64,000 nt of DNA, from the IMG/VR virus record IMGVR_UViG_3300024346_000004; one strand, written 5' to 3'. The notes under the pieces were generated by a model, which worked only from the letters and a program-made list of their open reading frames with translations, had not been told where the DNA came from and did not search any database. This DNA comes from a virus. Its lineage: Duplodnaviria; Caudoviricetes. A program made the translations under genes and the position numbers. This document shows, piece after piece, positions 2,006-55,385 of this stretch; the stretch's first letter is position 1, and each line of letters opens with the position of its first letter.

Positions 2006-3382
2006 ATGTCTGATATCATTAAAAGCAATACTCAGCGGTGTGCTTTCTGTACTAAGAAAGCTACTGAAAAAATTACAGACCATTTGAATTTATTTTCAAA
2101 AGATAATGCTCTTTATTTATGTGAAGCTCATTTTAACAGTTTTCAAGTTGGAACTGTTTTTGGGCAGATGGAAATAAATGCTAAAATTATTTCTATTTTA
2201 TCTAATATAGACGATGATCTCACTGGAGAGACATTGAAAAATAGAGTATATACATTAGTACCTTTGGGAAAAACACAAGTTGATTCATCGCCTCAATCAA
2301 GGCCTGTTTCATTTTCTGAATTTAGCCCAAAATATTTCTATGAGTCTTTGAATAAAAAAGTAATTGGTCAAGAAGATGCTAAAAAGAGAGTATCTTTGGC
2401 TGTATATGAGCATGTAAAATCATCATTTGACAAAAATGAATCTAATGATAGGCACAATATACTTCTTCTTGGCGCATCGGGAAGTGGCAAAACTTTCATC
2501 ATCAATAATGTTGCCAAAGACTTAAATGTTCCTTTTGTCGTAGGTGATGCTACTTCATATTCTCCCACAGGTTTTCAAGGTTCAGATGCGGATTCATGTA
2601 TACACGATCTTTGGACATCAGTAGAAGGCGATATAGAATCAGCTGAACGTGGAGTAGTTTTTATTGATGAAATTGATAAACTAGCTACATATAATCACAC
2701 TGGATCAAGATCTGAATCTTTTAATCAGTCTACACAGTCTACTATGTTGAAGCTTATAGAAGGTAAGCGCATAAAAATACCATCATCCGTCACAGGTGAT
2801 ACTGGTAGCCCGCCTCCATATATATCTACTAATAAAATATTATTCTGTTTTGGCGGGGCTTTTAATGGTCTGCATAAAATCGTAGCTAAGAAAATGGGGA
2901 AAAAAGAAAAAACCATTGGATTACGATCAGACGCAGATTACAATGAAGAATATCAAAAACAATTAGAATCTTATGAAATCTTAAGATCTGCTTCTCAAGA
3001 TGTCCTTATAGAAAGCCTTATAGAATATGGATTATCTGCTGAATTTGTAGGTAGAATTCAAAATATTGTTGCATTAGCTCCTTTAAACAAAGAAGAACTA
3101 ATGAAATGTTTAGTAGAAATTGAAACATCACCTGTCAATAAACAACAGATTCTTTTTGCCGAGTCTGGTATACATTTGATATTTGAAGAAGATTTTCTAA
3201 ATCATGTTATTGATAAAGTTGAAAAAATGGGTACAGGTACAAGAGCTCTTAACACATTAGTAAAGAAATCTGTATCTTATGCTGCATTTGAACACCTTGG
3301 TCATTCAGGTAAGAAACCAAAGAGTATTACCATCATACAGGAATGCTTAGAAAATCCTGAGAAATATCATATAGAGTATTAA
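2006..3382 (+). CDS. clpX: ClpX-like AAA+ unfoldase
   Basis: VIGQEDAK, Walker A GASGSGKT, Walker B VFIDEIDK, IGL loop, EFVGR, GTRAL; N-terminal CAFC..CEAH zinc-binding remnant. Confidence 0.9.
   Translation: MSDIIKSNTQRCAFCTKKATEKITDHLNLFSKDNALYLCEAHFNSFQVGTVFGQMEINAKIISILSNIDDDLTGETLKNRVYTLVPLGKTQVDSSPQSRPVSFSEFSPKYFYESLNKKVIGQEDAKKRVSLAVYEHVKSSFDKNESNDRHNILLLGASGSGKTFIINNVAKDLNVPFVVGDATSYSPTGFQGSDADSCIHDLWTSVEGDIESAERGVVFIDEIDKLATYNHTGSRSESFNQSTQSTMLKLIEGKRIKIPSSVTGDTGSPPPYISTNKILFCFGGAFNGLHKIVAKKMGKKEKTIGLRSDADYNEEYQKQLESYEILRSASQDVLIESLIEYGLSAEFVGRIQNIVALAPLNKEELMKCLVEIETSPVNKQQILFAESGIHLIFEEDFLNHVIDKVEKMGTGTRALNTLVKKSVSYAAFEHLGHSGKKPKSITIIQECLENPEKYHIEY
3339..3363 (+). promoter_or_regulatory. 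putative phage-specific promoter AGG-N17-GAGAA
   Basis: agg aatgcttagaaaatcct gagaa, 36 nt upstream of the ORF at 3400. Confidence 0.5.
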
Positions 3383-3399
3383 AAATATAAGGTGATATT

Positions 3400-4959
3400 T
3401 TGAGCAAATATATTAAGAAAATTGTTGATTTAAACAGATATACTACAGATTCAGAAGCTAATGTAAAGCTATCTTATAAAACTCTCGAAGCAATTTCATC
3501 CTTATGGGTCAAGGTTGCTGATAACCCTGTCACCCCTACAGTACCCGATGTTACTCGTGCTATTGGTGTTCAAACTACTTCTAGAGATATTGCTAACTAT
3601 ACCAAAATTGTAGATCATTTTTTAAATCTTTTAATGAAGAGCACAAATCAAAAATATAATCAAAAAATATATAAATATGATTTTGTTTTTACTTCTAATC
3701 CTGAAATAGATCCAGAAGCAACTTTGCATAAGAATGAGATTGACAAAAAGTTTGATGAATTAAAAGCAGCTGAACCTACTCCAAGTTTTGAAACTAAATA
3801 TCGTAAAGCTGGTGGTAGCAGTTGGACAGCATATAGCGATGTAATTTTTTATATTGAAAGTACAGGGTTCAGTGGAACTCTTGAAACTGATGATACTACT
3901 ACTCCAACTCCAACAATTAATGCTACTGTATTATATAATTTGCCTTCAGCTCCTAGGCATAATAATCCAGCATATTTGAGTTATAGTAATACAGCTAAAG
4001 TAGCATTACTCAATCTTTGTACAAGCAGAGGCATCCCACCCGTAGCACCTGGGTCACCTCTTAACACTTATGAAGATTATAAAAACAGTATCATTGCATC
4101 TTTCGGAACTCCTACAGTAAAACAAAAAAAGATTCGATCTAGTAATCCTATTGAAGGTGTAATACCAAAAACAGATGACGAATATTTTATAATTGATTTA
4201 GTAAAATTAGTTAACACTAAGACAGCGCCACCACCTGGTATGCCAAGAGAGAATTATGAATATATTTTAAATAAATCTGGCGTTTTGACCTGGGCGGGTG
4301 TTTCAGAAACAGATCCTAGCGTATATAATCCAGCGTTGCTACCTTATGATCCAAATAAATTTGCTGTAGGGGATGTTGAAAAAGCTACATTACTCAACCG
4401 AGATTTGAAAATTCCCGCAAGTATGGGTGGTTTTATTTTAGCTAATGTTTTAGCTTTACGTGCATCTATGATAGCAAGCATTACATCTACAGTAGAATCT
4501 AATTTCGACTTAGATGGTGGACAGATAGCTATTCAAGAAATGTTTAGTGCATTTACTCCTCGACAAGCAAAATTATTCAATGCTAGAGGTTTGGAATCTT
4601 ATGTTGCTAATGATGGAACAGTAAGATTTGATGTAGATAAAACTATGGATTATCTTAAACAAATGGCTAATTACAATGGTATAACACAGTTTTTTGATAA
4701 AAGAATTCAACTTAAGTTGTCTAAATTAATTGATTACCCTATAGAATCTTATGATAATGAAAAAGGTGTAAAGAAAACAACTCCTTACAAAGATTTTATC
4801 AAGAATGCAACATATGAACAATTAGTAGATCCAACCATTATCAGTCTAATAAGAAATATTGCTAGACAAATAGCCGTTGAAATAGGTAAATTAGAGATCA
4901 AATTAGTTCGTTATCAAAGAAGACAGAGAATCGATAAAATCAATAAAGCAGGTGATTAA
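3400..4959 (+). CDS. hypothetical protein, possibly virion-associated
   Basis: 519 aa ORF, TTG start with AAGGTG SD; N-terminus MSKYIKK shared with ORF 55395. Confidence 0.7.
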   Translation: MSKYIKKIVDLNRYTTDSEANVKLSYKTLEAISSLWVKVADNPVTPTVPDVTRAIGVQTTSRDIANYTKIVDHFLNLLMKSTNQKYNQKIYKYDFVFTSNPEIDPEATLHKNEIDKKFDELKAAEPTPSFETKYRKAGGSSWTAYSDVIFYIESTGFSGTLETDDTTTPTPTINATVLYNLPSAPRHNNPAYLSYSNTAKVALLNLCTSRGIPPVAPGSPLNTYEDYKNSIIASFGTPTVKQKKIRSSNPIEGVIPKTDDEYFIIDLVKLVNTKTAPPPGMPRENYEYILNKSGVLTWAGVSETDPSVYNPALLPYDPNKFAVGDVEKATLLNRDLKIPASMGGFILANVLALRASMIASITSTVESNFDLDGGQIAIQEMFSAFTPRQAKLFNARGLESYVANDGTVRFDVDKTMDYLKQMANYNGITQFFDKRIQLKLSKLIDYPIESYDNEKGVKKTTPYKDFIKNATYEQLVDPTIISLIRNIARQIAVEIGKLEIKLVRYQRRQRIDKINKAGD

Positions 4960-4961
4960 AA

Positions 4962-54650: not shown

Positions 54651-54714
54651 AATTATCTCTCAGTTAGATTTATATTTGTAATCTCGATCCTCAAGAATCC
54701 TTTATAATATATGT

Positions 54715-55368
54715 ATGGAAACAGTATTAACAATGTCATCAAACATTAATTATGCTGAAAAAACAATATTTCCCAAGCTAGATGAATTCAAAAATATACC
54801 TTACAGAATAGACATATATATAAGTGGATATGATAAATATTCACTTTTAGAACAACATGAAAACATAAATATATATGCTACAAATTACAATGTTTTTGAT
54901 TTCACAGCTTTAGTGACAAAATATGTTTATGAAAAAATAGATTCTCATTTATTTTTAATTCATGACACAATTAAACTAGGGGATAATTTTTCAACATTAT
55001 TAAGTAAAAAATTACAAGACAATTCACATTTAGAAGCAATAGGATTACAAAAAGGACCCTCTAGAGGAATGGGCTGGTTTAATTGTAAATATCTTCTAAA
55101 TCACAAGAATTTGCCATCATTATTTGGTAACACAAGTAATGATATCAAACAATTAAATCATTTTAAGAAGTTAGCAATACAAAAAGAAAATTTATTATTT
55201 GATTTAGCAGAAAAAAAGACATATTTTCAAGATTATGATCCACAAATACTGGAAGAAGCATCAATGCAAAATAGCTTCAGAAGAACATATTATTTTGATT
55301 CATTAGATCTATATAAATATCAAGCTAACTATACAGGTATTCAACCATCATACAGAATACAGGTTTAA
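54715..55368 (+). CDS. glycosyltransferase-like hypothetical protein
   Basis: LFLIHDT (DxD-like position); TATAAT 6 nt before the ATG. Confidence 0.45.
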   Translation: METVLTMSSNINYAEKTIFPKLDEFKNIPYRIDIYISGYDKYSLLEQHENINIYATNYNVFDFTALVTKYVYEKIDSHLFLIHDTIKLGDNFSTLLSKKLQDNSHLEAIGLQKGPSRGMGWFNCKYLLNHKNLPSLFGNTSNDIKQLNHFKKLAIQKENLLFDLAEKKTYFQDYDPQILEEASMQNSFRRTYYFDSLDLYKYQANYTGIQPSYRIQV

Positions 55369-55385
55369 GAAAAAACAATAAAGAA
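55361..55385 (+). promoter_or_regulatory. putative phage-specific promoter AGG-N17-AAGAA
   Basis: agg tttaagaaaaaacaata aagaa, 9 nt before ATG 55395. Confidence 0.55.

Follow-up and report, generated by a model that had tools for sequence, protein, structure and literature searches.

A sigma-H-type promoter motif ahead of virion genes in a clade of freshwater jumbo phages, probably read by a phage SigH homologue

A short bipartite element, AGG and AGAA set 18 nt apart, recurs ahead of fibre, decoration-like and leader-bearing genes in a 64,000-nt stretch of the IMG/VR virus record IMGVR_UViG_3300024346_000004, and it raises the question of whether it is a promoter and, if so, which sigma factor would read it. 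The stretch analyzed, which we call the window, comprises bases 14,574-78,573 of the 165,921-bp record (G000; G+C 32%; CheckV completeness 46%). It encodes tail-fibre proteins, Ig-like 'decoration' proteins, GroEL, a Y-family polymerase and a sigma factor. Outside it the record carries rIIA, PhoH, a 1,935-aa Ig-repeat protein and, past ~122 kb, an early arm with small genes in plenty behind classic TTGACA-N17-TGnTATACT promoters. Gene starts were set with a crude open reading frame caller by a simple longest-frame rule. The original prediction wrote the element as AGG-N17-DAGAA, which is the same as AGG-N18-AGAA, and took it for a non-host late promoter with a sigma-H-like layout, read by a phage sigma factor that was possibly the one encoded at 56619-57218. 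We read AGG-N18-AGAA as a sigma-H-type promoter of a late virion-gene regulon that is probably read by a phage SigH homologue, and we give this reading a probability of about 0.6.

All ten sites of the original prediction, including the spacing and AAG variants, were present at their positions. The exact AGG-N17-DAGAA pattern occurred 15 times in the window as against 7.9 +/- 2.8 in dinucleotide shuffles, and none of 100 shuffles reached 15. Nine of the 15 matches lay within ~100 nt upstream of a start on the same strand, and the other six, at 11195(-), 19080(-), 29995(+), 36258(+), 40247(-) and 52758(-), were intragenic or antisense and chance-like. A dyad scan of every 3-mer/4-mer pair at spacers of 10-22 (~43,000 dyads) took in the 63 regions upstream of genes that do not belong to the early arm. 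The top rank went to AGG-N18-AGAA, with 9 upstream copies where 0.44 were expected (p = 1e-9) and 30 copies genome-wide, and a spacer scan of the record showed enrichment at this spacing only. The hexamer TAAAGG, which is the -35 hexamer of the best copies, was independently the most enriched 6-mer (14 vs 1.8). The motif was found in 9 of the 63 regions outside the early arm and in none of the 55 inside it (p = 0.003), while sigma-70-like promoters had the reverse bias, favouring the early arm. These results bear out the description of a strand-specific bipartite promoter-like element, distinct from the TTGACA/TATAAT early promoters, with sigma-70-family geometry. When a position weight matrix built on the exact sites was refined by expectation maximisation, it drifted to generic A/T-rich sequence (118 'sites') and was abandoned; we used exact and single-substitution counts relative to other spacers instead.

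Written as hexamers, the core becomes (T/a)AAAGG, a 17-bp gap and (T/A)AGAA(A/T), which is the canonical sigma-70-family promoter geometry. Beyond the core, the flanks add no more than A/T-rich sequence behind each box and a purine at the second base ahead of AGG: of 66 intergenic sites that were pooled (AGG being fixed by the search), 47 had R at -2, while W stood at +4 to +6 in 79-88%, and A, T and G at +3 in 33, 22 and 7, respectively. AAGG and AGGA were the most frequent extensions of the first box, and AGAA was followed by A in 58 and by T in 26 of 84 pooled copies. Single substitutions mostly removed the spacer-specific excess, with ATAA, TGAA, AGGA and AGCA, though not CGAA, partly tolerated in the second box and A or T partly tolerated at the third base of the first. 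The spacer was nearly rigid, with a sharp peak at AGG-N19-GAA (equal to AGG-N18-AGAA) in eight genomes and a minor N17 form confined to copies close to start codons (7 vs ~1 expected).

The resemblance to sigma-H promoters was correctly noted in the original prediction and is stronger than stated there, since the motif equals the published Bacillota consensus. The sigma-H boxes of B. subtilis and B. thuringiensis are RNAGGAWWW and RNNGAATWW (PMC8510167). In Listeria the consensus is (A/G)(A/C)AGG(A/G)WWW-N11-12-(A/G)(A/G)(A/C)GAA(A/T) (PMC4754846), and its N11-12 between 9-mers equals AGG-N18/19-GAA. Many of the C. difficile SigH promoters in Table 3 of PMC7438776 read AAAGG-N17/18-AGAA(T/A), among them those of fusA1, cwp27, spoIIAA, CD0865 and CD0999. 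The phage motif thus agrees with sigma-H promoters in the -35 box (AGG then A/T-rich, frequently AAAGG), the -10 box ([A]GAA then A/T) and the spacing. On the other hand, the phage copies head virion, fibre and cargo genes rather than stationary-phase or sporulation genes, have A after GAA about twice as often as T (58 vs 26), do not use the CGAA that is common in C. difficile, keep an almost rigid spacer and abut a start codon in about a quarter of cases.

We examined whether the motif is conserved in related phages. Relatives were located through GroEL and later through a sigma alignment; single-protein searches with a fibre protein and the window sigma gave no matches, and the window-sigma alignment was too diverged to serve as a seed, so that the GroEL and SigH-like alignments were used. 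Seven genomes were fetched whole, one of which (G003) is 99% complete. Upstream copies at spacer 18 numbered 9 in G001, 15 in G002, 12 in G003, 9 in G006, 12 in G007, 8 in G008 and 9 in G009, while any other spacer from 10 to 26 gave 0-4. A 150-kb phage with a 48% identical GroEL and no sigma gene (G004), used as a sigma-less control, had no upstream AGG-N18-AGAA. In an unbiased spacing-specific dyad scan of the eight pooled genomes the motif again came first (84 vs ~8, z = 25), and it was the sole top-ranked dyad found in all eight, the other top dyads being repeat families of one to three genomes. The motif was retained at 7 of 11 reciprocal-best orthologues between G001 and G002 (p = 5e-8), 7 of 10 between G001 and G007, 8 of 11 between G002 and G009, and 5 of 5 between G003 and G008; retention was significant in these four pairs and not in G001/G003. 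Between orthologous copies the spacer sequence and the ATG distance changed, while both boxes and their spacing were kept, a pattern that is read as a phylogenetic footprint.

A factor fitting such a promoter is encoded in the relatives. In all seven, a single conserved operon contains two more sigma genes, in the order dnaX-like clamp loader, SigH-like sigma (family C), purA (adenylosuccinate synthetase), dnaN-like clamp, holA-like gene and a second sigma (family B). The five best NCBIfam matches of the family C protein were all SigH models (E 1e-28 to 9e-34, residues 10-214), followed by the next at 4e-15; Pfam recognized Sigma70_r2 and r4_2, and the best PDB match was the sigma-H chain 3mzy. 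The region-4 helix K-x-(V/I)-D-N-x-x-x-R-I-R-K-K is common to 3mzy and conserved across the clade, of which family C is the best-conserved sigma (44-91% identity); its gene was found in 50 IMG/VR contigs. Because of this homology and of its co-occurrence with the motif in all seven relatives, the SigH-like protein is the best candidate reader and, as far as these comparisons go, appears a better one than the window sigma. In the mechanism we propose, this phage-encoded homologue, made from a gene between dnaX and dnaN in the clamp-loader/clamp operon as in the relatives, would direct host core RNA polymerase to the motif. A conserved copy of the motif was not seen ahead of the SigH-like operon, and autoregulation is not supported. 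Against bacterial genomes the protein had relatives at 30-38% identity only, in Bacillota, Actinomycetota, Fusobacteriota and Synergistota. A separate 76%-identical fragment lies on the 6,960-bp contig VEQB01000117.1 (L197) of a metagenome-assembled genome labelled Bacteroidetes; the contig is probably phage DNA binned in error and a weak hint of the host at most.

The record itself encodes two sigma factors, that of the window and a 151-aa protein related to extracytoplasmic function (ECF) sigmas in the early arm (see table), and we asked whether the former could be the reader. It truly belongs to the sigma-70 family, having both region 2 and region 4, and orthologues are present in the motif-bearing G001 and G002. 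Its GroEL-PolY-Ogg-sigma operon follows a sigma-A-like promoter at 62103-62168(-), TTTACA-N17-TAATAT, in which TG directly precedes the -10 box, and a AAAGGTAGGA ribosome-binding site; from this promoter the window sigma should be an early or middle product and would be made before late genes. However, its best NCBIfam matches were a generic superfamily model and partial FliA/SigF models, with no SigH signature, and it is only 31-35% identical to the G001 and G002 orthologues, with a changed region-4 recognition helix in the face of an identical motif. In G003 GroEL and the Ogg-like gene are kept, no sigma follows them and no orthologue of the window sigma was found, yet 12 motif copies remain; G003 alone counts here, since G006 and G007 are contigs without the whole GroEL region and their lack of the gene is uninformative. 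When genomes with a window-type sigma were compared with the others in search of a motif of their own, nothing crisp emerged. We therefore consider it unlikely that the window sigma reads the motif: of the original proposal, reading by a phage sigma stands as likely, while the gene it named is a poor candidate. No promoter class matching the 151-aa ECF-like sigma was found; a weak relative is encoded in G003 at 320400-320987. Nearby, at 319102-319800 (L052), G003 encodes a 232-aa sigma-like protein weakly related to the window sigma family, with an exact AGG-N18-AGAA 53 nt upstream, which would be a possible cascade step in that genome.

Several observations weigh against our reading. The SigH-like sigma scored 116.7 bits, below the NCBIfam SigH equivalog cut-off of 208, and by this score is SigH-like and not an equivalog. 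Neither tblastn nor Pfam found it in the 165,921-bp record, from which the dnaX-dnaN operon is also absent at 46% completeness; in this phage it presumably lies in the missing part of the genome, an extrapolation from the relatives. In pairs involving G000 the retention of the motif at reciprocal orthologues was not significant (0/3 and 1/5), the numbers being small. The motif holds ~13 bits, and its genome-wide count is near expectation (30 in G000), so that position and spacing alone distinguish it; since it is so poor in information and both sites lie in coding sequence, the copies at 21343 and 3339 may be chance. Such low information would also suit an A-rich compositional by-product, the site of another DNA- or RNA-binding protein or, since some copies have AGAA near a start codon, a translation signal. 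We regard all of these as very improbable in view of the exact spacing (0-4 copies at other spacers in every genome), the strand specificity relative to the downstream gene, the lack of enrichment of AGAA alone at -13 to -10, the match to an established sigma consensus and a distance to the ATG of anything between 9 and 90 nt, which speaks against a translation signal in particular.

If the motif is a promoter, the host's own sigma-H-type factor could read it, the phage homologue then being auxiliary, for instance in manipulating stationary phase or sporulation. The 'non-host' label of the original prediction is not established, as a sigma-H may be among the host's own factors. Cellular sigma-H promoters cannot be told apart from the motif, SigH-like proteins occur across several phyla, which makes a host copy plausible, and the sporulation-like sigmas of phages have been seen as serving host manipulation and can be dispensable (PMC9429907). 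Yet in every relative whose sequence takes in the clamp-loader operon there is a phage SigH-like gene, conserved at 44-91% identity, which would hardly be expected were the host factor enough, and a phage that left all its virion genes to a stationary-phase sigma of the host would make lytic growth dependent on host physiology; we give host reading the same small chance as reading by the window sigma. Less probable again is family B (~187 aa), the last gene of the dnaX-dnaN-holA operon, as the reader, alone or together with the SigH-like protein. This second clade-wide sigma counts against our reading as it sits in the same operon, co-occurs with the motif in the seven related genomes just as family C does and has a clear region 4, while only a single clade-wide alternative promoter class is detectable for two clade-wide sigmas. 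It lacks similarity to SigH, however, with ECF-like or generic matches, is less conserved than family C (31-58%), and its region 2 was not recognised by Pfam.

The copies in the window and the sigma genes are listed in the table. The prediction that fibre, decoration-like and leader-tag genes lie downstream was borne out, and the leader-tag genes sit mostly in operons behind the motif, the MWY-tag and helical-leader proteins being encoded in 36678-38695, 42526-44117 and 45648-47954. Outside the window an endolysin-like gene follows the motif, and among the genes behind it in the relatives are those of a prohead-protease fusion and of large Ig-repeat proteins, as far as the sparse PHROG annotation of downstream genes there allows. 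Standing apart from the sigma-A-type early promoters and before structural-type genes, AGG-N18-AGAA fits a late-type profile. The earlier description was correct as to the two divergent gaps with back-to-back pairs (10800-10970 and 42430-42525) and the 9-nt distance to the ATG of the copies at 36644, 45614 and 55361; the distal minus-strand copy in the first gap was absent from the earlier list. The copy at 21343-21367 is a weaker case because it lies within coding sequence. The variants at 30974-30998(-) and 30982-31006(+) are also back to back, and AAG as a first box had marginal overall enrichment only. As a separate observation, the -10 box of the proximal minus-strand copy falls inside an inverted repeat, CTGATA ... 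TATCAG with a 15-nt loop (10868-10900(-)), which could be an operator or chance.

Table. Motif copies in the window and sigma-factor loci of the record and a relative (window coordinates unless stated; distances are from AGAA to the start codon)
Position	Strand	Element	Downstream gene and remarks
3339-3363	+	sigma-H-type promoter AGG-N18-AGAA	in 3' end of gene 2006-3382; 36 nt to TTG start of gene 3400-4959, which has AAGGTGAT ribosome-binding site
10872-10896	-	proximal of two tandem copies	Ig-like (head-decoration-like) gene 9963-10799(-); 72-nt leader
10900-10924	-	distal tandem copy	gene 9963-10799; overlaps plus-strand copy back to back
10910-10934	+	promoter copy	heads long virion/tail-fibre operon 10971-29797
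21343-21367	+	possible internal promoter	in 3' end of gene 18697-21447; 84 nt before gene 21452-24898 (1148 aa, decoration-like repeats)
30974-30998	-	variant AAG-N18-AGAA	gene 30090-30947(-); leader with GGAG ribosome-binding site
30982-31006	+	variant AGT-N18-AGAA, tentative start-proximal	9 nt to ATG of 31016-31846
36644-36668	+	start-proximal promoter	9 nt to ATG of 36678-37118, heading operon 36678-38695; protein begins with MWYKIAQ tag; no ribosome-binding site at start
42439-42462	-	start-proximal promoter, one-shorter spacer AGG-N17-AGAA	9 nt to ATG of 42082-42429(-); back to back with 42468(+)
42468-42492	+	promoter TAAAGG-N17-AAGAAA	operon 42526-44117, first proteins with helical leader; 33-nt leader with GGAGA ribosome-binding site
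45614-45638	+	start-proximal promoter	9 nt to ATG of 45648-45923, heading operon 45648-47954 (leader-bearing genes)
49650-49673	-	start-proximal promoter, N17	10 nt to ATG of 47981-49639(-)
55361-55385	+	start-proximal promoter	9 nt to ATG of 55395-55712; AGG box in last codons of 54715-55368
56619-57218	-	sigma-70-family gene, regions 2 and 4	in GroEL-PolY-Ogg operon; candidate of the original prediction
G000 125124-125579 (L006:6551-7006)		second sigma gene, 151 aa, ECF-like (SigM/SigZ-type hits)	outside the window, in early arm
G001 L020:9365-15355		clamp-loader/sigma operon	metallopeptidase-like gene first, then dnaX-like; same order in G002, G003, G006, G007, G008 and G009

The start-proximal copies form a second layout beside the more common one, in which the copy has a leader and stands 20-90 nt ahead of a start codon with a Shine-Dalgarno site. 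In six genomes the full motif had AGAA at a distance (k) of 9 nt from the start codon in 12 genes, 10 nt in 5 and 11 nt in 2, the remaining copies lying ~15-100 nt before it. Other spacers at k = 8-11 gave counts of 0-2, except for 7 at N17. AGAA without an upstream AGG had no excess at k = 9, indicating that AGAA is not a general translation signal. A Shine-Dalgarno site was missing in 24 of 26 start-proximal copies (N18 or N17), all 26 of which had an ATG start, whereas leadered copies had such a site in 52 of 67 cases and none in 15. Conservation of the N-terminus among the orthologues of three genomes settles the start codon of the MWY-tag proteins. The printed C. difficile SigH promoters terminate 9-12 nt after GAA (PMC7438776), and from this distance the +1 is predicted on or beside the A of the start-proximal ATGs. 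About a quarter of the copies, with AGAA 9-11 nt before an ATG and no Shine-Dalgarno site, should on this basis give leaderless mRNA. In the window we predict leaderless messages for 36678, 45648, 55395, 42429(-) and 49639(-) and, tentatively, for 31016.

We also noted a 40-nt promoter stretch, CTTGTAAGGAACTGTC.CTGGATTTTAGAAAGATATAT, that is near-identical between window 49640-49679, the region of the copy at 49650-49673, and G006 14870-14909, where it precedes the start codon of gene 14910-16562; the neighbouring proteins are ~36-41% identical. A TATAAT-like box, often with TG before it, lies 5-10 nt ahead of start codons at window 54651-54714, 41283-41554(-), 1942-2005, 34563-34587 and 55713-55745, as in TTTATAATATATGT-ATG at 54714, which suggests that some sigma-A-type promoters in the window are also start-proximal. 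In the early arm (L007, L008; G000 ~149-160 kb) a hairpin unit, TTAGGCTTGT(T/A)AACAAGCCTAA, followed by an A/T-rich stretch, is repeated in several copies upstream of many small genes, and genome-specific repeat families related to it dominate the dyad scans in G001 and others.

Phage sigma factors that redirect the host polymerase are well known from SPO1 and T4. In SPO1, gp28 (middle) and gp33/gp34 (late) act on host RNA polymerase, and T4 late transcription uses the gp55 sigma, gp33 and the gp45 sliding clamp at TATAAATA promoters. The present clade resembles SPO1 in encoding several sigmas and, on our reading, in shifting host core from sigma-A-type early promoters to phage-specific bipartite ones. 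The SPO1 sigmas, however, are not SigH-like and their -10 boxes differ, whereas here the promoter, as read from sequence, copies the consensus of a cellular alternative sigma. A dedicated late sigma for virion genes would be a likeness to T4, and the position of the relatives' SigH-like gene between clamp-loader and clamp genes recalls the link of replication and late transcription there. T4 late promoters lack a -35 box and gp55 is a minimal sigma, while the motif has both boxes with a 17-bp hexamer spacing, and the clamp and loader are of bacterial type. A functional coupling of clamp and late transcription in this clade is pure speculation. We find doubtful a fuller scenario in which the clade would have made SigH its master late sigma, with its gene in a dnaX-sigH-purA-dnaN-holA-sigma operon, late transcription licensed by replication in T4-like manner with unrelated parts, and a start-fused subset giving leaderless virion-cargo (MWY-tag) mRNAs.

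Phage homologues of Bacillota alternative sigmas are described in a paper that also mentions the SPO1 sigmas (PMC9429907): SP10 g120, Goe3 g157 and SPO1 gp2.21 are phage-encoded sporulation-like sigmas. The family C protein is likewise such a homologue, but those three resemble SigF/SigG, at least one can be dispensed with, and their role is read as that of altering host dormancy, while the SigH-like factor is matched by a conserved sigma-H-type regulon on phage structural genes, which points to a core developmental role. New here are this pairing of a SigH-type factor with a conserved regulon on phage virion genes and the start-fused subclass of promoters.

For the clade, which comprises widespread uncultured freshwater jumbo phages with the SigH-like gene in at least 50 IMG/VR contigs, the analysis offers a transcription map in which sigma-A-type early promoters would be joined by one sigma-H-type class for virion, fibre, lysis and tagged-cargo genes. 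With its simple conserved consensus the motif can help to mark late genes and correct start codons in these poorly annotated genomes, and the start-proximal subclass provides a testable case of leaderless late messages. More broadly, our findings suggest that 'sporulation-like' sigmas in phage metagenomes can be core developmental regulators with a phage regulon of their own, and not just tools of host manipulation.

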